DNA of 64,000 bases, taken from Clostridia bacterium DTU022 (GTDB lineage Bacteria > Bacillota > Dethiobacteria > DTU022). This document shows, piece after piece, positions 8,932-48,005 of the stretch; position 1 is the first letter of the stretch; the number at the start of each line of letters is the position of its first letter. Both the position numbers and the translations under genes were made by a program. Location: the NCBI GenBank assembly GCA_001512835.1, contig LFRQ01000015.1, positions 1,176-65,175 on the forward strand, in the 5' to 3' direction. Below the pieces are notes generated by a model. The model did not search any database and was not told where the DNA came from. It was given only the letters and a program-made list of their open reading frames with translations.

Positions 8932-9165
8932 TACTATCCGAACCGGGATAAGCCCCGCCGCTCCCGTGAGATAGCGCTCCACCGGAAACCGGGCTGTTTC
9001 CGGTGACAGTCTGCCGGCTATTTGCAGGCAGCCCAGCCCCCGGGCCAAGGGAACCCGGAAGCTTCGGCGATAACCCCTTTCACGCCCTTTCCTTGGAGCC
9101 CTTGCTCCTCCCGGCCGCTACTCTTGGTTACCGCACCTCTACCCCACCCTTTTGCGAGATGAGGC
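8932..9165 (-). promoter_or_regulatory. Lysine riboswitch (L-box) controlling lysA-asd-lysC
   Basis: The minus strand carries the L-box hallmarks AGAGGUGCG (plus 9132-9140), CAAGAGUA, GUGAAAGGGG..AUCGCCGAAG, CUGUCA and GGUGGAGCGCUAUCUC (plus 8968-8983). The blocks occur in the same order as in the B. subtilis lysC leader. Confidence 0.8.
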
Positions 9166-10670: not shown

Positions 10671-10872
10671 ATCTCCACCCCCACCAATATTAAGGACCAA
10701 AAAAACCTTCCTCGCCGGGAAGGTACACTGGAACATTATCCATATGGGCTCTGTCCCGGTCCATCCCGGCTCCAAGCAGAGACAACAAAGCTGAAATCAA
10801 ATTAAACGCGTCCTGGGTGTGGCGCCCGCGGGCTGCCGCCCAAAAACATTGTAGCACGAATTTTTGCCAATA

Positions 10873-19215: not shown

Positions 19216-20096
19216 CAGAGAATGTTTTTCCCTCGAAACCTAAAAACAGCACCGCCAGGCAAGGTCGAGGAAAAGCAAAAAACCTTTAAACGAACTCATC
19301 CCTCCTTATTGTCTATATTCTTAATCTAAACGATGTTCTATTTAGTGCAAGTAAAAATACAATTTCGACACTTTGTCCTTAATATCCTGCCAAAAATTTA
19401 GGCAGGTCATAATATTTTACCTTGTTAAATATTTTCGCGAATAAAGTGCGCCCGCAGGGTTGGAGCCGGGAAAAAAAGGGGCCGCCGGGAAAATGAAATC
19501 CCGCCCAGGGCCCGCCTCCACCCAGGCGCCCGGACTAAAATAAAATAGGAGAGGGGAAGCGGCCCCCAGCCGGCGCCGGGCCGGAGAGCAGCCCTGGAGA
19601 TATTCTTTATCTTGCCCCATCTCGCCGCCGGCGGCAGGCAGCGGCCATAAATCTCCCGGGCGCCTGGGCCGCTGCCGCGTTGGTGCTGTCCGTGGCCTTT
19701 CCAGGAGGCCGCCCCGACCCTTCCCCTTTCGCCCATGGCTTTGACCGCCCGCCCCGGCAAAAAAGCCCCTGCCGCCCCGGGCCTTTTGCCCGTTCCCCTC
19801 CGGCGGTGGCAAAAATAAAGTTCTTGCCGGTGGGGCCTTCTCCACCACCGCCCGCCTGCGGGCGGCGGAAGGGAGAAAGAAAGGCGCTCCTTGCCGGTTA
19901 GGCCCGGCGAGGGTGCAGGCATGGGATGGTGAACCGCCACGGCCATGAAAAAACGGCCCCTACCGGTTATGCCTATGCCCAGGGTTGTCTCCATATGCCC
20001 GGTTTCTCAATTTAAGGCGGCCAATTCAATAGTAAAATTAAAAATTAAATATGTTATCCGGTTATTTTTTCAGAAAAAAAGGTATTTTTACATGTT

Positions 20097-20121
20097 TGTC
20101 GAATTAAAACTACAGCGACAA
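20097..20121 (+). promoter_or_regulatory. Candidate Spo0A boxes upstream of the spo0E-like gene
   Basis: TGTCGAA at 20097-20103 and its inverse (GCGACAA) at 20115-20121, in an AT-rich stretch 20-40 nt upstream of the start codon. Confidence 0.3.
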
Positions 20122-20139
20122 CCTGATGGGGTGTCACAA

Positions 20140-20304
20140 ATGAATAGGCTCGAAAATCGTCGCCTCATTGAAGAAATAGAGATTCTTCGTGAACAGCTCC
20201 ATCGCTCCTGCGTGAGCAACGGGAAGATGACTCCCAGCGACGACGCTTACCGCATCAGCATTAAACTGGACCAACTCATCCTGGAAATTATGAAAGCAGG
20301 CTAA
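20140..20304 (+). CDS. Spo0E-family sporulation regulatory protein (aspartyl-phosphate phosphatase-like)
   Basis: A 54-aa product, MNRLENRRLIEEIEILREQLHRS...SDDAYRISIKLDQLILEIMK, fits the Spo0E helical-hairpin family pattern. The ORF-track 5' extension through an AT-rich promoter region is rejected. Confidence 0.6.
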   Translation: MNRLENRRLIEEIEILREQLHRSCVSNGKMTPSDDAYRISIKLDQLILEIMKAG

Positions 20305-20307
20305 CCT

Positions 20308-21375
20308 CTAGCCCAGGGATTCCTCAACCCGGATTAAACCTGCCGGACCCTCCACAATGGTGCCGACCAGCCAGCCTTTTACGCCTTCTTCGGCCAGCCG
20401 CTTCTCCATCAACTCCCCCTTGCCCCGCTCCACGGCAATTAAGAGCCCTCCCGAGGTCTGGGGATCCGCCATCAGGAGAAGGGAATCTTCTTCCTGCCCG
20501 CTGCCGGCCCATTCCACGTGGGCACGGTAATATTCCAGGTTCCGGTAAGCGCCGGCGGGGATAAAACCCTGAGCGGCCAACTCCTTCGTTCCGGGGTATA
20601 AGGGGATGTTGCCGTCGCCCAGCCGGGCCGCCGCCCCGCTGGAGAGAAGCAGTTCGCGCAGGTGCCCCAGGAGGCCGAAGCCGGTAACATCGGTGCAGGC
20701 TGTGGCACCGGCGGAAAGAGCCGCCTTGGCGGCGGCGGCATTCAACCGCGCCATGGACTCCAGGGCTTCTTTCACCTCTTCGGGGCTCACGGCTTCTCCC
20801 TTCAGGGCCGTGGTTATAATGCCTGCGCCCAGGGGCTTGGTTAAATAGAGCCGGTCCCCGGGCCGGGCACCGGCAGGGGTCAGCATGCGGCGGGGGTCGA
20901 TAAGCCCGGTCACGGCCAGGCCGTATTTCGGCTCCTTGTCTTCCACACTGTGGCCGCCCACCACCATGGCGCCGGCTTCCCGGACTTTGTCATAGCCCCC
21001 CCGGAGGATGAACTCCAGGGCCTCCTGCAACTCCGGGGAGCCCCCGGCGCAGGGAAAGCAGACAATATTGAGGGCCGTAAGGGGCCTGCCGCCCAGGGCG
21101 TAGATATCGCTGAGGGAGTTGGCGGCGGCGATCTGCCCGAAGAGGTAGGGGTCATCCACCACGGGCGTAAAAAAGTCAACGCTCTGCACCAGGGCCAGCT
21201 CTTCCGTCAGGCGGTATACGGCGGCATCGGCAAATCGATCTTCCCGGTTTAGAAAATGCGGGTCATCGGGCAAAGGCAGCGAGCGCAGAACCTGCGCCAA
21301 GGCCTCGGGGCCTATTTTTGCCGCTCACCCGGCGCTGGCGGTCATCGCCGTCAGGCGAAATTTTTTATCGTTCAC
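20308..21375 (-). CDS. selD: Selenide, water dikinase (selenophosphate synthetase), selenocysteine-containing form with in-frame UGA at plus 21325-21327
   Basis: The ORF-track protein lacks the N-terminus that normally holds the catalytic Cys/Sec. Reading upstream in frame gives VNDKKFRLTAMTASAG-U(TGA)-AAKIGPEALAQVL, which aligns to E. coli SelD ..[25 protein letters not shown]. GTG start at 21375 with an AAGGGGGAAG ribosome binding site. Confidence 0.75.
21283..21324 (-). promoter_or_regulatory. Candidate bacterial SECIS hairpins downstream of the selD UGA
   Basis: GGCCCCGAGGCC sits 12-23 nt downstream of the UGA. GCGCAG-GUU-CUGCGC is a perfect 6-bp stem with G/U in the loop, 27-41 nt downstream. 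Confidence 0.4.
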
Positions 21376-21599
21376 GCCACTTCCCCCTTCTATGCCTAAT
21401 TTCCCCGGCCCCGGTGTCCGCGGAATCCCGGCCGGGACTCCGGCCTCGGGTGTGGATAAAGCCCGGCGCCAAGGCAGGCCTCGGGCCGGCCCGAGCCGGC
21501 TCCGCCCCGGAAGCCCGATAAAGCCCGGCGGCTAACAGCCATCTTCCGGCCACGGGCACCGGCTCCGCCTCAAAATCCGGACAAGCAGGCGGCGGTTCC

Positions 21600-23540
21600 T
21601 TATTCTTCTCCGCCTTTCCCCAGGCCGGCTATCTTCCGGGCTACCCGCTGGTCGCCTACCCGCCGGGTCAAGCCGCGCTGATCGAAGTGCTCCAGCAGGG
21701 GCTGAATAAATTTCCGGGAGCTGCGGGTCAGGTCCCGGAACTGGGCCAGGGTTAGAGTCTCGGCCTTCTCAAAATGGCGACGCAGCAGCTCCACCGCTTC
21801 CCGGTAGGTGTCCCGGTGGAAATAAAGCTCTTCATTAATTTTTTGCAGCAGGCCCTGGCCGGTCAAGTAGCTGAGGTATTCCTCCTGGCGCCCGCTCTCC
21901 ACCCCCGAACGGGCCATGGCTTCCCGAAGGGATGGGGGCTGGAAGCCCCCGCTCCGGTACAGGCCGAGGAGGCGGTCCAGCTTCTCCCGGTCCCCGGCGC
22001 CTGGTTGCGGTTGATAGCCGTGCAGGCTGATCAACTCCCCGCGCACGGCAATCTGCTTCTCCTGCTCCATAATCTCCAGCAAGGCGTCGTACTGGCGCAG
22101 GCTTAAGCTTTCCGGCAGCTCGCCGCGCAATTCCGCCCGGGAAAGCCCGAACATCAGGGGATAGCGGGAATGAAAGCGCCGCAGCCGGGCCAAAATCTTT
22201 TCCCGCCACTCTTCCAGCTGGGCGGCGGCTACGTAGCCGCCGCCCAGCCGGCAAGCCGCTCCCTGGCGAACCAGCTTGGTTAAAATCTCTTCCAACTGGG
22301 CCTCGGATAGGCGGGTAGCCTTGGACAGCTGCGCCAGCCCCGCCCCCGGCAGCGCCTCCAGCTTCTGCCGGACAAAGGCTTCCCCTTCTCCGGAGGCCAG
22401 CTCCTGCTCCAGGGCCTTCAGGTGCCGGACCACCTCCTCCCGGAAGCGGCGGTGCCGGGAAGGAAAGGGATCCAGGATCACTCCCCCGCCGATGGTGGTC
22501 GTGGGGGAGTAGGAGCGGATAATAAAGGGATCCCGGCGCTCTGCTACCAGGGGGCGATCCAGGCGGCACTGCACCGGAGCCGCTTCCCCGGGAAGCAGTT
22601 CCTCCCGGTCCAGGAGAACCAGCCTGGCCACCGCCCGGGCCGTGCCCAGGTAAAAGTGAACGGGATCGAGGTTTTTCAAAGGGCGCGACGCCCGGGGAAG
22701 AAGCTTGAGGGTTGCATCCACCAGCCCGGTAACCCGGTAGTAGCCGGGAGCGCCGACGACGCAGCCGCGCTGGATCTCTTCCTTATCCACGCCGGAAAGG
22801 TTCAGGGCCACCCGCTGGCCGGCCCGGGCCTCCCGGAGATCGCGGCCATGAACCTGGATATTGCGCACCCGGGCCTGCAGCCCCGGGGGGACGATCTCCA
22901 CCGTATCCCCCTGGCGGACGGTACCCTGGAACAGGGTCCCGGTCACCACGGTGCCAAAGCCGGAGATGGTGAAGGAGCGGTCCACGGGGAGGCGGAGGGG
23001 GCCCCGGGGATCCCGGGGGACCACGTCCCTGGTCACGGCATCGATGAGCTCCTTCAGCTCCTCCAGTCCTTCCCCTGTCACCGCGGATACGGCGCAGAGG
23101 GGGGCCTTCTCCAAAAAGGTCCCTTTCAGCTCCTCCCGGATCTCCTCCTGCACCAGCTCCCGCCAGTCCTCTTCCACCAGGTCGACTTTGGTAATAACCA
23201 CGATCCCCTTCTGGACCTGGAGAAGCTCAAGGATATCCAGGTGTTCCCTGGTCTGGGGCATAACCCCCTCGGAGGCGTCCACCACCAGCAGGACCAGGTC
23301 CATGCCCGCCGCCCCGGCCAGCATGTTGTGAATAAAGCGCTCATGGCCGGGAACGTCCACCACTCCCGCCAGGCGCCCGCCGGGGAGGACAAAGGGGGCG
23401 AATCCCAGGTCGATGGAGATGCCCCGCTCTTTCTCTTCCTCCAAGCGGTCGGTATCCACCCCGGTAAGGGCTTTAATAAGAACGGTCTTCCCGTGATCCA
23501 CATGTCCGGCGGTGCCGATAATAATATACTCCGCTTCCAC
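21600..23540 (-). CDS. selB: Selenocysteine-specific elongation factor
   Basis: [15 protein letters not shown]-domain, EF-Tu-like domains 2 and 3, and a long C-terminal winged-helix extension. GTG start with a GGAAGGAGG ribosome binding site at 7 nt. Confidence 0.85.
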
Positions 23541-23573
23541 GAGCAGGCCTCCTTCCCTCAAAGAGCCTCCAGC

Positions 23574-24992
23574 CTAGCGGGCGGCCCGGCTTAGGGCCTC
23601 CAGCAGGCATTTTTCCCGGCTCTCCGGGACAGTCCGCAAGTCAAGGCAGAGGCAGTCCTGGGATATCCGAGCAATAACGGGAGGTTCGCCGCGGCGCAGC
23701 ATCTCCGCCAGGGCGCCGGCGGAGATGCGGTGCGGCTTGATGGCTACCAGGAAGGTGGGGAGCTCCACCAGGGGAAGAGAACCGCCCCCCGCCCGGGAAA
23801 CACCCGGAATCACTTCGATCTCATCCCCGGGCAGGACTTTCTTCAAGCGCCGGGCCAGGGAGGCGGCCCGCCTTTTCAGCGTGCCGGGGTCGGCGCAGAA
23901 AGCGCTCCAGACGGGGAGCTCCCGCAGGGCTTTTTCCGGTTCCAGGTAGAGGCGCAGGGTGGCCTCCAGGGCGGCCACGGTGAGCTTGTCGACCCTGACA
24001 ATCCGGGCCAGCTGGTTGGACCGGATGCGCTCCACCAGGGCGCGGCGCCCCACAATAATCCCGGCCTGGGGACCGCCCAAAAGCTTGTCGCCGCTGAAAG
24101 TAACCAGGTCCGCCCCGGCAGCAATGCTGTCCTGAACCCGGGGCTCGCTGTCGATGCCGAAGGGGGAGAGGTCCAGGAGAACCCCGCTGCCCAGGTCCTC
24201 AATTACCAGCAGCCCGTGGGCCCGGGCCACGGAAACCAGCTCCGCGGTGCTTAAACTGGAGGTGAAGCCCACAATCTGGTAGTTGCTGGTATGGACTTTC
24301 AGAAGGGCGGCGGTAGCTTCGGTAATGGCCTCCTCGTAATCCCGGCGGTGGCACTTGTTGGTGGTCCCCACCTCCACCATGCGGGCTCCGCTGGCGGCCA
24401 TCACTTCGGGAAGGCGGAAAGAGCCGCCGATCTCCACCAGCTGCCCGCGGGAGACGATCACCTCTTTGCCAAAAGCCAGAGCGTGCAGGGACAAAAAGAC
24501 GGCGGCGGCGTTGTTGTTGACCACCAGAGCCGCCTCGGCCCCCGTTAAGCGGCAGAGGAGGCTCTCCAGGTGGGCCTGGCGGGAACCGCGCTCGCCGCTC
24601 TCCAGGTCCATCTCCAGGTTGCAATAGCCGCCGGCAGCCCTGGTCAAGGCCTCCACGGCGGCCCCGGACAGGGGGGCCCGTCCCAGGTTGGTATGTAAGA
24701 TGACTCCGGTAGCATTAATCACCGGGCGCAGGCTGAATTCCGCCTGCCGGCGGGCCCGCCGCGCCGCTTCGGCGGCCAGCTTGCCGGGAGAGAGATCCAG
24801 CTTGGCCAAGTCTTCCGGCAAACGCGGGCTTAGCAGCAGGCTCCGGTAACTCTCCACCGTCTGCCGGGCCGCCTCCAGGAGCGCCTGCCGGGGCAGGGCC
24901 CCTTCCAATTCTTGCAGCGCCGGCTCCCGCAGCAGCCGGTCCACCGCCGGAAGCTCCCGAAGCAAATCCCGTACCTCCGCCACTGGCGTCAC
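23574..24992 (-). CDS. selA: L-seryl-tRNA(Sec) selenium transferase
   Basis: 472 aa. PLP fold with VINATGVILHTNLG and FSGDKLLGGPQAG (Lys). GTG start. Confidence 0.85.
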   Translation of the reverse strand: MTPVAEVRDLLRELPAVDRLLREPALQELEGALPRQALLEAARQTVESYRSLLLSPRLPEDLAKLDLSPGKLAAEAARRARRQAEFSLRPVINATGVILHTNLGRAPLSGAAVEALTRAAGGYCNLEMDLESGERGSRQAHLESLLCRLTGAEAALVVNNNAAAVFLSLHALAFGKEVIVSRGQLVEIGGSFRLPEVMAASGARMVEVGTTNKCHRRDYEEAITEATAALLKVHTSNYQIVGFTSSLSTAELVSVARAHGLLVIEDLGSGVLLDLSPFGIDSEPRVQDSIAAGADLVTFSGDKLLGGPQAGIIVGRRALVERIRSNQLARIVRVDKLTVAALEATLRLYLEPEKALRELPVWSAFCADPGTLKRRAASLARRLKKVLPGDEIEVIPGVSRAGGGSLPLVELPTFLVAIKPHRISAGALAEMLRRGEPPVIARISQDCLCLDLRTVPESREKCLLEALSRAAR

Positions 24993-34467: not shown

Positions 34468-34773
34468 ATCTCCCTCCCCGGCTTCATGGGGACTGCATTA
34501 ATTATTTCTACACCCATGAAAAAATACCTACCCCCGAGAATCCCGCCCCCTTTCGCCTGGGCTCCGGCGGCGGCAAAAGGGGCCTCCCGGCCTGCCCACC
34601 AGCCCGTTCCGCTCTTCCGCCGGCTTGCCGCCGGCCGCCGCCCTCCGGACCGTCCCCGAACTGGCCTGCTGCCGGCCCGGCCCCACGGCCTGTCCCCGGC
34701 CCGACCCTAAACGGCCCGGCCGCCGGACAAGCTCCCCACCGCCCTGGCGCTGATAAACCCCCACCCCCTGCTG

Positions 34774-34850
34774 CCGGAACACTCTCACCCGTCCTGGCCC
34801 GGAACACCCCCATTCGTCCTGCCCCCGGAACACTCCCGCCGCCCTCACCG
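34774..34850. repeat. Three tandem ~25-nt units CCGGAACACYCYCAYYCGTCCTGSC
   Basis: Units start at 34774, 34799 and 34825. They lie within a 520-nt ORF-free GC-rich gap. Confidence 0.5.
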
Positions 34851-44807: not shown

Positions 44808-45698
44808 TTACCGGGGATAGAGGTTCAGCAGCTCCCTGGCTTCCGCGGGGGTGGCCACCTCCCGGCCGCACATTTCGCAGAGCTTCACCGCCCACTCCAC
44901 CTGTTCATAGCTCCCCTTGGCCAGCCGGCGGTCGGGCATGCGAATGTTGTCTTCCAGGCCGACCCGGATATGGCCGCCGTAAGCCAGGGCGCTCAGGGCG
45001 GCGGAGATCTGGTTGGGGCCTACTCCGCAAACAGACCAGGTGGAACCCTCGGGGAGCAGCTCATACATGCGGGCCAGGTTGGCAGGAGAAAAGGGAACTC
45101 CCCCCGCCACCCCGAAGACAAATTGGAAATGCATGGGCTCATCGATGATCTTGCGCTTGTTGATCAGGAGCACGTTGTAGAGGCCGCCCAGGTCATAAAT
45201 CTCCAGCTCCGGCTTTACCTTGTTCTCCCGCATGATCAGGGCAAAGTCATTAAGCATCTGGAAGGTATTTTCAAACAAGATTTCCATGCCGATCTCCCCG
45301 GTTTGATAATCGGCCAGGGCAAAGTTCATGGAGTTGGTGTTCAGGGAGGCCATCTCCGGCTTCATCTCTTTAATGGGGGTAATCCGCTGTTCGGGGGTCA
45401 ACATTTGGCGAATGGCGCTGCTCATGTTGATGATCAATTCCGGGCAGCGCTCCCGGATGGCGTTGATGGTGGGCCGGATCAGGTTCAGGTCCTCCGTGGG
45501 CATTCCCGTTTCCGGGTCCCGCACATGGATATGCACGATGGAAGCGCCCGCTTTCCAGCACTTGTAGCTCTCTTCAGCAAACTCCTCGGGGGTATACGGA
45601 ACGGCTTCGTTCTGGTGCTTGAAGGTCGCCGCTCCCGATAAGGCGGCGGTAATAACCACTTTCTTGCGCAAAAGCTCGTTGACATACTGCTCGCGCAT
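44808..45698 (-). CDS. BKACE-family beta-keto acid cleavage enzyme (3-keto-5-aminohexanoate cleavage enzyme-like, DUF849)
   Basis: 296 aa TIM-barrel pattern (SIVHIHVRD, GLEDN). Confidence 0.7.
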   Translation of the reverse strand: MREQYVNELLRKKVVITAALSGAATFKHQNEAVPYTPEEFAEESYKCWKAGASIVHIHVRDPETGMPTEDLNLIRPTINAIRERCPELIINMSSAIRQMLTPEQRITPIKEMKPEMASLNTNSMNFALADYQTGEIGMEILFENTFQMLNDFALIMRENKVKPELEIYDLGGLYNVLLINKRKIIDEPMHFQFVFGVAGGVPFSPANLARMYELLPEGSTWSVCGVGPNQISAALSALAYGGHIRVGLEDNIRMPDRRLAKGSYEQVEWAVKLCEMCGREVATPAEARELLNLYPR

Positions 45699-45829
45699 GC
45701 AGAGTACCTCCTTAAAAACTTAAAAATAGGTAATTACAGATTGCCGGTATAATCCCAGGGATTGAAGGATTAATACCACCAGAGGTCAGAGGTTTTCATC
45801 TTGCTGCCAGATGAAGCAAAGCCCGTTCA

Positions 45830-46085
45830 TCCTGCAAGGGGCATTTTGCTGCCTGTTGGGAAATACTTGCTGCCTGTGGGGAACAACTTGCTGCCTGTGG
45901 GAAAATGACTTGTTGCTTGTAGGAAAATAACTTGTTTCCTGTAAGGGTAAGTTGCTGTCAGTAAGGGGAAAAACTTGCTGTCCGTAGGGAATATCTTGTT
46001 GCCTGTAAGGATAATCTTGCTGTCTGCAGCCAGTAGCTTGCTGCCTGTAGGGTCCGCTTGCTGCCTTAGGGGTATAGCCTGCCGG
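45830..46085. repeat. Tandem array of ~11 units of a 21-22 nt repeat, consensus TTGCTGCCTGTAGGGAAAAAC
   Basis: Head-to-tail units, for example ttgctgcctgttgggaaatac / ttgctgcctgtggggaacaac / ttgctgcctgtgggaaaatgac, with progressive degeneration toward both ends. There are no spacers. It lies in the intergenic gap between MaoC and the BKACE gene. Confidence 0.8.
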
Positions 46086-46131
46086 CAAAAGCAACACAGC
46101 AGCCGGGGGCGGTTTTCCCCGCCTGCCGGTC

Positions 46132-46593
46132 CTACTCTTCCAGACCAAACATTTGCTTGTATTCCTCCTTGGGAGGCATCACCACGGCCGTGCCGTCCGC
46201 AACCACCGTCCCTTCCTGGTTAACCCATTTTAATTCCATCCTAACCCGGTTTCTCTTTTCATCCTTCTCCAGCACCGTAGCCGTAGCGGTAACCGTATCG
46301 CCGGGAAAAACGGGCGCCCTGTACCGGCAGGAGGTCTCCAGGGCTACCGTCCCCAGCCCCGGCAATATGGTGCCCAGCACCGGAGCAATCAGGGAAGTAG
46401 TAATGCCGCCATGGGCAATGCGCTTGCCGAACATGGTCTTCCGGGAAAACTCCTCGTTGACGTGCATCGGGTTGAAATCCCCGGTAATGCCGGCAAAGAG
46501 ATAGATGTCCGTCTCGGTGATAGTCTTGCTGAAAGAAGCGCTGTCGCCAATGGAAATCTCCTTTATGGTTTTCCCCAGTTTGATGGGGCCCAA
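46132..46593 (-). CDS. MaoC-like (R)-specific enoyl-CoA hydratase/dehydratase, hot-dog fold
   Basis: 153 aa. The GDFNPMHVNEEF motif is typical of MaoC dehydratases. Confidence 0.8.
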   Translation of the reverse strand: MGPIKLGKTIKEISIGDSASFSKTITETDIYLFAGITGDFNPMHVNEEFSRKTMFGKRIAHGGITTSLIAPVLGTILPGLGTVALETSCRYRAPVFPGDTVTATATVLEKDEKRNRVRMELKWVNQEGTVVADGTAVVMPPKEEYKQMFGLEE

Positions 46594-46599
46594 GTTCTG

Positions 46600-47208
46600 T
46601 CACCTCCTTAATCCATTGACCAGATAACTGGAGATCAGTTCCGCCACCTCTTCTTTGCCGAAGCCCTTTCCCTCCTGGAACCAGACGTAGACCCAGTTAA
46701 TGCTCCCCAGTATGGCATAGGACAACAGCTTCTCATCCTCGTTGATAAAATAACCCTTATCAATCCCCTCCTTGATCAGTTTTTGAATCAGCCGTTCATA
46801 CTGCTTCCGGCTGGCCACGATCTCCTGCCAGTGCTCGGGGCGGAGATCCCGGCGCAGATCCATGAATACGGCCATAACATCCCGGTTTTCGCAGATGACC
46901 AGGACATGGGATTTCAAAATCTTTTTCAGCCGCTGGTCCGGAGGCAGCTCCCGGTGGTGGACGTCGGAGACTTCCTCCAGGAAGAAATCCATAGCCTGCC
47001 GGAAGATCTGGAAGAGAATCTCCTGCTTGCTGTTGAAGTAATAGTAGATGTGGCCCTTGGTCACACCCATCTGCTCGGCAATCTGGTCGATGGTGGCCGC
47101 GTAGCCCAGCCGAGCAAATACCGTCGCTGCGGCGGTCAAGATCTGCTGCTTGCGCTGGAATTCCACCGAAAGATCCCTGGATTTATGCTTCTCGTATATC
47201 CTGGCCAT
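46600..47208 (-). CDS. TetR/AcrR-family transcriptional regulator
   Basis: The N-terminal HTH LGYAATIDQIAEQMGVTKGHIYYYFNSKQEI is the TetR signature. Start trimmed to MARIYEK (TAGGAGGGAGAAC ribosome binding site). Confidence 0.8.
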   Translation of the reverse strand: MARIYEKHKSRDLSVEFQRKQQILTAAATVFARLGYAATIDQIAEQMGVTKGHIYYYFNSKQEILFQIFRQAMDFFLEEVSDVHHRELPPDQRLKKILKSHVLVICENRDVMAVFMDLRRDLRPEHWQEIVASRKQYERLIQKLIKEGIDKGYFINEDEKLLSYAILGSINWVYVWFQEGKGFGKEEVAELISSYLVNGLRR

Positions 47209-47329
47209 GGTTCTCCCTCCTAAACCCACCGGTACAGGTTGGCCGTAAAATAATACTACTCAGTATAATAATTAATTCTTCCCCCGGGAAAATATTCCTG
47301 CCAATTTACCAGAAAATTTTTTATTTTAA

Positions 47330-48005
47330 AAAATCTTTTGGGGGTCAGGTCTTGAATTGTGAATTTTGGTTTTGGGGGTCAGGTCTTGAATTTCCCCTCC
47401 TTACCTTATACCGGGGTCAGGTCTTGAATTGTGAATTTTGATTTAACCTTATCTTATATTTGTATACTGTTTACATGGGTTTGATCTTGAATCTTGATTT
47501 TTCCCCTCCTTATTTCTTAGAGATCTACCTATTATTAATTAGGACTTCTCAACGGGTCGGGCCTTAAATTGTTAATTTCCACACCTCGTGAGTAAAGAAA
47601 CGCCACGTTCTTGTTCCGCCGGCAAAAGAAATAATTCAAGACCCGGGCTTTAAATCAAGACCCGGACCCAAGAAACCCTCAAAAATTCAAAATTCAAGAC
47701 CTGACCCCATCCTTAAATTTGGAGGAAGGCCTTTCAATTTTCAAACGGCCTCAAAAGGCCGCTTCAGTCCCCGCTAGTTTATTTATTCAGGCCATTCTGC
47801 GGCAACATTGAGCTTGCTGCTGGAAGGAATGCATCTTGCAAGGGGCGTCCTTGTTCCGCCGGCAAAAGAAATAATTCAAGACCCGGGCTTTAAATCAAGA
47901 CCCGGACCCACGAAACCCTCAAAAATTCAAAATTCAAGACCTGACCCCATTCCCGGCGGACCCAAGAAACCCTCAAAAATTCAAAATTCAAGACCTGACC
48001 CCATT
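47330..48005. repeat. AT-rich repeat island: at least 5 direct and 7 inverted copies of a ~25-nt motif GGGGTCAGGTCTTGAATTGTGAATTTTG, plus a ~106-nt segment duplicated at 47605-47710 and 47845-47950
   Basis: Plus-orientation copies at 47339, 47373, 47412 and degenerate copies at 47478 and 47554. Inverted copies (…AATTCAAGACCTGACCCC) at 47628-47708, 47868-47948 and 47958-48004. The two long copies are 240 nt apart and differ at 2-3 positions. Confidence 0.8.

Follow-up and report, generated by a model that had tools for sequence, protein, structure and literature searches.

The gap between the maoC and BKACE genes of a beta-oxidation-like gene cluster carries a head-to-tail array of 11 degenerate units, 231 nt in total, on the minus strand at positions 45842-46072 of the window (the whole stretch of 64,000 nucleotides analysed). 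We read this array, at about even chances of being right, as a minisatellite specific to this species that arose from a local repeat family and has a passive role in cis. That a spacer-less array of about 11 copies of a ~21-nt unit lies between maoC and BKACE, as the original prediction had proposed, was borne out by repeat finders, unit cutting and Pfam searches; the array is indeed located within the interval first given for it (45830-46085), which is slightly wide and leaves outside a twelfth copy of the core at 45800-45811. The features of the region are the following, in minus-strand order.

47813-47872, minus strand: unexpanded paralogue of the array flanks, TTTCTTTTGCCGGCGGAACAAGGACGCCCCTTGCAAGATGCATTCCTTCCAGCAGCAAG (alignment against shuffles)
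47253-47266, no strand: perfect palindrome ATACTACTCAGTAT, just upstream of tetR and unrelated to the array unit
46600-47229, minus strand: gene for a TetR-family regulator with TetR_N and TetR_C_24 domains (Pfam)
46132-46593, minus strand: gene for a MaoC-type dehydratase, directly upstream of the array (Pfam)
46087-46139, minus strand: GC-rich hairpin with a U-rich tail, UGUGUUGCUUUUG, overlapping the stop codon of maoC (folding)
46073-46094, minus strand: left array flank TTGCTTTTGCCGGCAGGCTATA, which shares homology with the 3' terminus of a 105-nt repeat found upstream of tetR
45842-46072, minus strand: eleven units, u1-u11 (repeat finders, core matches, unit cutting and alignment)
45795-45841, minus strand: right array flank or tail, CCCCTTGCAGGATGAA...TTCATCTGGCAGCAAGATGAA, homologous to window 47844-47813
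45769-45778, minus strand: TGGTATTAAT, extended -10-like (read from the sequence)
45707-45713, minus strand: Shine-Dalgarno sequence AAGGAGG, 8 nt before the BKACE ATG at 45698 (read from the sequence)
44808-45698, minus strand: gene for BKACE (beta-keto acid cleavage enzyme), the first after the array (Pfam)

Since the flanking genes are all encoded on the minus strand, the array is read on that strand, where the unit consensus is CCCTACAGGCAGCAAGTTATT, the reverse complement of the TTGCTGCCTGTNGGGAAAWAC described earlier. Unit boundaries were placed by script at the CC starts of the minus strand, which gave, from 46072 down to 45842, lengths of 20, 23, 19, 21, 21, 21, 24, 22, 20, 21 and 19 nt (mean 21.0, range 19-24); divergence between the units amounts to ~30%. 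Tandem Repeats Finder placed the array at 45846-46052 with a period of 21, 9.7 copies, 68% matches, 7% indels and a score of 103, and gave alternative rows for it with periods of 22 and 64, while a gapless repeat search recovered 8-9 in-register copies at a spacing of 20-23 nt. The 12-mer core ACAGGCAGCAAG, with up to two mismatches allowed, has 11 matches within 45800-46068 and 20 across the 64-kb window, for which shuffles predict 5.4 +/- 2.3 matches (0 of 100 shuffles reach 20), and core pairs at unit spacing occur nowhere else in the window. The twelfth core copy is isolated, having no neighbouring unit. Within the unit, the CARCAAG core is nearly invariant, and both the sequence and the length of the AT-rich 3' spacer are variable. 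There are no spacers between the units, which abut head to tail so that 11 of them fill the 231 nt, and the array is therefore not a CRISPR, as had already been argued; Pfam scans of the window revealed no Cas domains, and the CRISPR-DR25 match of a permissive Rfam search (19.3 bits against a threshold of 36) is positioned at 45747-45768, outside the array.

The genes that follow BKACE, encoding DUF35/ChsH2-like, thiolase-like, acyl-CoA dehydrogenase and AMP-ligase proteins, are tightly packed down to ~34987, and according to the ORF coordinates the other junctions of the cluster are mostly overlaps or gaps of less than 40 bp, compared with 433 bp between maoC and BKACE. Along the minus strand this gap is composed of the hairpin, the U-rich tail, the 11 units, the tail with the twelfth core, TGGTATTAAT, the Shine-Dalgarno sequence and the ATG. 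The hairpin (-30.7 kcal/mol, z -2.3) looks like a terminator and is not present in the short spacers of relatives, and TGGTATTAAT forms, together with a weak -35-like ATGAAA at 45794-45799 that adjoins the twelfth core, a feature that is promoter-like only. As a simple terminator scan did not flag the hairpin and a consensus promoter scan found no promoter at 45769-45799, both elements are designated here as '-like'. The twelfth core is contained in two mutually exclusive short hairpins (GATGAA / TTCATC / GATGAA). A sigma-54 promoter in CTGGCAGCAAGATGAAA was considered and rejected by inspection because the -12 GC is missing. The terminator-like hairpin is flanked by the 9-nt direct repeat CCGGCAGGC (46076-46084 and 46120-46128), which may be a duplication scar.

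Further upstream, tetR and maoC are found in the same reading frame, split by one TGA (46600-46602; window 46594-46602). The corresponding position in relative L006 is Trp (TGG), and L006 and L042, the closest relatives, encode a single fused TetR-MaoC protein of ~359 aa. The sequence AAGGAGGTGA at 46594-46602 also provides a Shine-Dalgarno sequence for a TTG start of maoC. Such a fusion of a regulator with a hot-dog domain is reminiscent of FapR.

The array was deleted, its flanks were joined, and the product was aligned to the 780 bp that lie upstream of tetR. The joined flanks align colinearly to one contiguous stretch of ~60 nt on the minus strand (window 47872-47813) with a score of 35, compared with 18.2 +/- 2.4 for shuffles (maximum 28; 0 of 500 reach 35). 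This colinear homology indicates that a local repeat module was duplicated and that the array arose within one of its copies; a single paralogue of the module, located 1.8 kb from the array, was found. The left part of the paralogue coincides with the 3' terminus of the 105-nt repeat, which is present twice upstream of tetR (47606-47710 and 47846-47950) in copies that are 98% identical. The repeat cluster in this region (window 47341-48002) comprises six copies of GGGGTCAGGTCTTGAATT, three per orientation, as well as inverted ends of 27 nt with 96% complementarity (e.g. 47341-47367 with 47682-47708; inverted end GGGGTCAGGTCTTGAATTGTGAATTTT), and its architecture can be described as MITE-like. 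One of the repeat copies overlaps the 3' end of a YheC/D ATP-grasp ORF. No convincing terminal inverted repeats were found around the array, the gapped pair TTGCCGG..TATA / TATA..CCGGCAA being within chance, and the lack of inverted ends in the array-carrying copy is a point against its derivation from the local repeat family; the neighbouring cluster does have such ends. Another intergenic tandem-repeat region, C-rich and situated at 34622-34837 between the metallophosphoesterase and AMP-ligase genes, was reported by Tandem Repeats Finder with periods of 40 (1.9 copies) and 25 (3.1 copies); this region and the repeat cluster upstream of tetR indicate that the genome readily produces intergenic repeats.

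As judged from its relatives, the array is an expansion private to this uncultured Bacillota species. Five syntenic relatives, having the gene order tetR-maoC-BKACE-DUF35-thiolase-thiolase and a BKACE identity of 77-84%, possess maoC-BKACE spacers of 242, 96, 102, 58 and 59 bp in which neither a tandem repeat nor core pairs were detected, and the array was not found in a sixth relative with a different gene context. A local alignment for a relic unit in L006, the closest relative, scored 23 against 17.6 +/- 2.2 (maximum 27) and was not significant. These short, array-free spacers point to a species-specific expansion in a spacer that was ancestrally short. The complete 433-bp spacer including the array is identical in five assemblies of the species, which are near-clonal (0-3 SNPs across the surrounding 6.9 kb), so that its unchanged state says little about selection. 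The exact BKACE protein is encoded on contigs of several anaerobic-digester-type metagenomes and by MAG GCA_035409705.1 ('Bacillota bacterium'), the set to which the five assemblies belong.

The original prediction had named two observations that would speak against it, namely copy-number variation among isolates and a widespread occurrence of the 21-mer at unrelated loci. Neither was found, the former in the five near-clonal assemblies and the latter in the data scanned, which for the source genome comprise ~76 kb. Searches of genome and metagenome collections with two-core patterns (30 genome-contig matches; 31 matches in a second metagenome scan) returned only unrelated repeats rich in CAG/CAA, either coding or of low complexity, whose variable halves differ from that of the array unit, a viral collection gave one match, and a stricter two-core pattern, which does match the window, gave 0 matches in metagenomes. 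The source genome is not part of the scanned genome, metagenome and viral collections, and these scans therefore cannot exclude further copies within it. The ~76 kb of source genome that was read (the window plus extensions of 12 kb) contains no second array and does not demonstrate a dispersed repeat family. By blastn, the array showed no similarity to plasmids or phages, and a literature search on 21-bp intergenic repeats found nothing useful.

Among the 30 unrelated genome-contig matches to the pattern CAGGCAGCAAG-N8-12-CAGGCAGCAAG, 20 have a period of exactly 21 nt. This excess is probably due to coding repeats, since 21 is the sole multiple of 3 in the range. Included in these 20 are apparently non-coding perfect arrays (L012 7212-7285 and L013 1063-1094), TTCGCGCCCCCAGGCAGCAAG in an actinobacterial MAG (4 copies) and CGTGGGACGTCAGGCAGCAAG in a Chloroflexota MAG (3-4 copies).

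A slippage minisatellite, one of the explanations offered at the outset, best accounts for how the array arose. The ~60-nt module is present unexpanded upstream of tetR, with the terminus of a MITE-like repeat as its left part. Another copy lies in the maoC-BKACE spacer, which measures 58-102 bp in four of the five relatives and 242 bp in the fifth. A ~21-nt proto-unit inside the copy would then have been amplified to 11 copies, by what we infer to have been replication slippage or unequal recombination, and the amplified units would have diverged afterwards. The effect of the array would most likely be passive and exerted in cis: as a widened 433-nt untranslated, unstructured, C/A-rich spacer, with a terminator-like hairpin on one side and a weak promoter-like region on the other, it may loosen the coupling of the BKACE-thiolase genes to tetR-maoC and in this way split the operon. 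Against a passive role stands the survival of so diverged an array in a compact genome. With a module that was copied, a 21-nt unit that was amplified and a gap that would have grown from 60-100 bp to 433 bp, the array can serve as an example of operon spacer remodelling, and spacer expansion combined with a terminator-like hairpin and a promoter-like sequence may be one way in which operons get split and rewired.

The closest published analogue of the array is BrickBuilt, a MITE-borne minisatellite of Porphyromonas gingivalis with a 23-nt repeat (PMC4596501). BrickBuilt elements consist of 1 to ~23 spacer-less units between leader and tail flanks, are strictly intergenic and species-specific, and have imperfect copies whose conserved positions fall in the first half and whose variable positions fall in the second; automated annotation occasionally places spurious ORFs on them (PMC4596501). 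The array described here is similarly spacer-less, intergenic and species-specific, is built of ~21-nt units with a conserved and a variable half, and has leader and tail flanks that it shares with another locus, namely its one paralogue at 47872-47813. There are also clear differences. BrickBuilt is present in 19 dispersed copies per genome, has inverted ends on leader and tail, shows 0-11% mismatches between copies and has demonstrated promoter activity (PMC4596501), whereas the ~76 kb read of the present genome contain a single expanded copy and a single unexpanded paralogue, the array copy itself lacks inverted ends, the array units are ~30% diverged, and the array shows no sequence similarity to BrickBuilt.

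The units of the array have not decayed evenly. In a MAFFT alignment of the 11 units, CAGCAAG, the best window of seven columns, contains 6 mismatches in 77 cells, compared with 22 in 55 cells for the 5-column unit spacer and 20 in 99 cells for the nine 5' unit columns. The difference in decay between core and spacer is significant both in a permutation test in which each permutation also picks its own best 7-column window (p = 0.003) and in a Fisher test (p = 1e-5). Such a pattern is not predicted by uniform neutral decay and hints at selection on a recognition core; the better-kept core is the single hint of function in the array.

This pattern would be explained by a DNA docking array, in which 12 asymmetric ~12-bp cores, spaced about two helical turns apart, recruit a cooperative protein other than TetR. 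The candidate protein would give the BKACE-thiolase genes a control of their own after the operon split, acting upstream of a weak internal promoter. We regard this explanation as doubtful. In its favour are, besides the core that is conserved while the spacer decays, the mean period of 21.0 bp and the position of the array between the terminator-like hairpin and TGGTATTAAT, where the twelfth core adjoins the -35-like hexamer. The suggestion that bound proteins would sit on one DNA face is roughly supported, with R = 0.75 for the core positions at 10.5 bp per turn, but the irregular spacings of units of 19-24 bp rotate the core by a calculated ~100 degrees across the array. Other points weigh against docking on DNA: no candidate regulator is present in the window, where TetR is the only DNA-binding regulator among ~57 ORFs scanned (~50 of them with Pfam matches), the array is missing from all relatives, and the promoter is only promoter-like and was missed by the consensus scan. 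The same division into a conserved and a variable half is seen, moreover, in BrickBuilt, for which no partner is known. The predicted intrinsic curvature of the array is unremarkable as well, with 2-36% of window positions being more curved, and curved DNA due to phased A-tracts was rejected because the array is ordinary in both wedge models used (our own script with Bolshoy/Trifonov and De Santis parameters). The most curved stretch of the window in both models is found at ~20000-20140 (end-to-end to contour length 0.68-0.80), in an AT-rich gap between ORFs ending at 19994 and 20308. If the core is a binding site, the birth of a multi-site regulatory array would have been captured in a single species.

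Several known systems offer partial parallels to docking on DNA. LytTR sites are 9-bp repeats separated by a 12-bp spacer, giving a 21-bp period. The array resembles them in its asymmetric direct repeats of 21-bp period upstream of an element that is promoter-like only, and differs from them in its core sequence and in having 11-12 copies, LytTR sites coming in pairs; no LytTR gene or domain was found in the window. A precedent for this type of site is provided by AgrA, which at agr P2/P3 uses asymmetric direct repeats just upstream of promoters with suboptimal elements (PMC4227749). BldC, characterised in Streptomyces, oligomerises as a cooperative filament, head to tail, on a variable number of direct repeats (PMC5859096), and the direct repeats of the array could be lined by a regulator in a comparable way; known BldC sites are, however, short, and no BldC-like gene was identified here.

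A broader formulation, which we consider unlikely, is that selection keeps the array as a multivalent platform whose 12 evenly spaced CARCAAG cores dock or titrate an oligomerising nucleic-acid-binding protein, either on the unstructured C/A-rich leader RNA or on the DNA in front of a weak internal promoter. Its logic would be like that of CsrB/CrcZ-type or BldC-type systems, and we know of no platform system of either type in this lineage. If true, a regulatory array would have been born very recently from a minisatellite and would have taken over a beta-oxidation-like cluster that was split from its TetR.

For the RNA in particular, the array may be transcribed as an unstructured C/A-rich leader, whose evenly spaced CARCAAG motifs would serve to bind or titrate a protein that recognises RNA, or to load Rho, and would thereby tune the supply of BKACE transcript or its translation. 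This is quite unlikely, even if several features agree with it. The genes on both sides are encoded on the same strand, and variable spacing would be harmless to RNA recognition. The sense RNA is less structured than shuffled sequences, folding worse than 87 of 100 (z +1.12; antisense z -0.39), and its composition (A 0.32, C 0.29, G 0.19, T 0.20) places the C-minus-G excess in the top 0.7% of 231-nt windows, so that on sequence grounds the sense strand has the make-up of a putative rut site (untranslated, unstructured RNA of >= ~80 nt with C > G). The twelfth core, moreover, lies in a hairpin loop within the two mutually exclusive hairpins. On the other hand, the strong hairpin with U-rich tail that precedes the array may stop most transcripts, the array is missing from relatives, and the biased composition is an automatic result of repeating one unit. 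Nor does the array contain a known RNA motif. In CsrB/RsmZ and CrcZ, a single RNA several hundred nucleotides long presents a large number of short motifs at even spacing, a layout shared by the array; unlike these RNAs, it has no GGA-in-loop motifs, no separate promoter and no separate terminator. The Rfam family PrrB_RsmZ scored 11.7 bits against a threshold of 44, and CsrA sites were rejected since GGA occurs in only 3 of 12 units. A structured RNA element, as had been proposed, is not supported by the folding results on both strands or by Rfam, which has no family at gathering threshold for the array and only chance-level matches in a permissive search. The DNA and RNA versions of a selected multi-site docking array combined are given roughly one chance in three. 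A resemblance of the unit to the 341-357 segment of 16S rRNA was judged fortuitous, as no SSU match came up in the permissive Rfam search.

That the array serves as an operator array for the adjacent TetR-family regulator, another of the initial proposals, is very improbable; it is suggested only by the proximity to tetR and the place inside the regulated cluster. The array units have no dyad symmetry, and an inverted-repeat search found none spanning units. A different sequence, the palindrome ATACT-N4-AGTAT, is conserved upstream of tetR in the window and in L006, L042, L046 and L048, often as two copies in the relatives and as a single perfect copy in the window (47253-47266), where it is the probable TetR operator. 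Relatives with the same TetR, finally, carry no array.

An active VNTR, meaning a contingency locus with phase or copy-number variation, would fit the tandem structure and its location between genes, but is highly unlikely given that the repeats are only 68% matched and that the 433-bp spacer is identical in the five assemblies, a weak sample since these differ by only 0-3 SNPs in 6.9 kb. The least credible explanations, which we consider extremely improbable, are a protein-coding repeat, integrated plasmid iterons and a centromere. An open frame of 120 aa (ORF 45786-46148, RQQ-rich) does span the array, but it has no Pfam match, no gene call in five assemblies and no homologues, and two sense-frame translations of the array were without homologues among 5.8 billion proteins; since the consensus unit contains no stop codon in any sense frame, the frame remains open across the array, and spurious ORFs over such arrays are thus a direct consequence of the unit composition. 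The earlier dismissal of this ORF as a translation artefact was correct. Plasmid iterons and partition-site arrays consist of 17-22-bp direct repeats with a period of about two helical turns, to which the ~21-bp direct repeats of the array and its period of 21-22 bp correspond; unlike these, the array is part of a catabolic operon on the chromosome, found on chromosomal contigs as long as ~200 kb, with no rep or par genes in Pfam scans and no plasmid similarity.

Several other features were observed in the window. A lysine riboswitch (118 bits) at 8964-9149 is located upstream of a cluster of diaminopimelate/ornithine-type decarboxylase, aspartate-semialdehyde dehydrogenase and aspartokinase genes, and a pan motif (38.5 bits) is found at 10747-10842, at the start of the aspartate decarboxylase gene. 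Genes for a SelD-like protein of the AIR-synthase family, SelB and SelA are grouped at 20308-24992, from which it appears that the organism probably uses selenocysteine. The ETF and heterodisulfide-reductase/FlpD-like genes encoded at ~11.8-19.2 kb suggest that it may be a syntrophic fatty-acid oxidiser.
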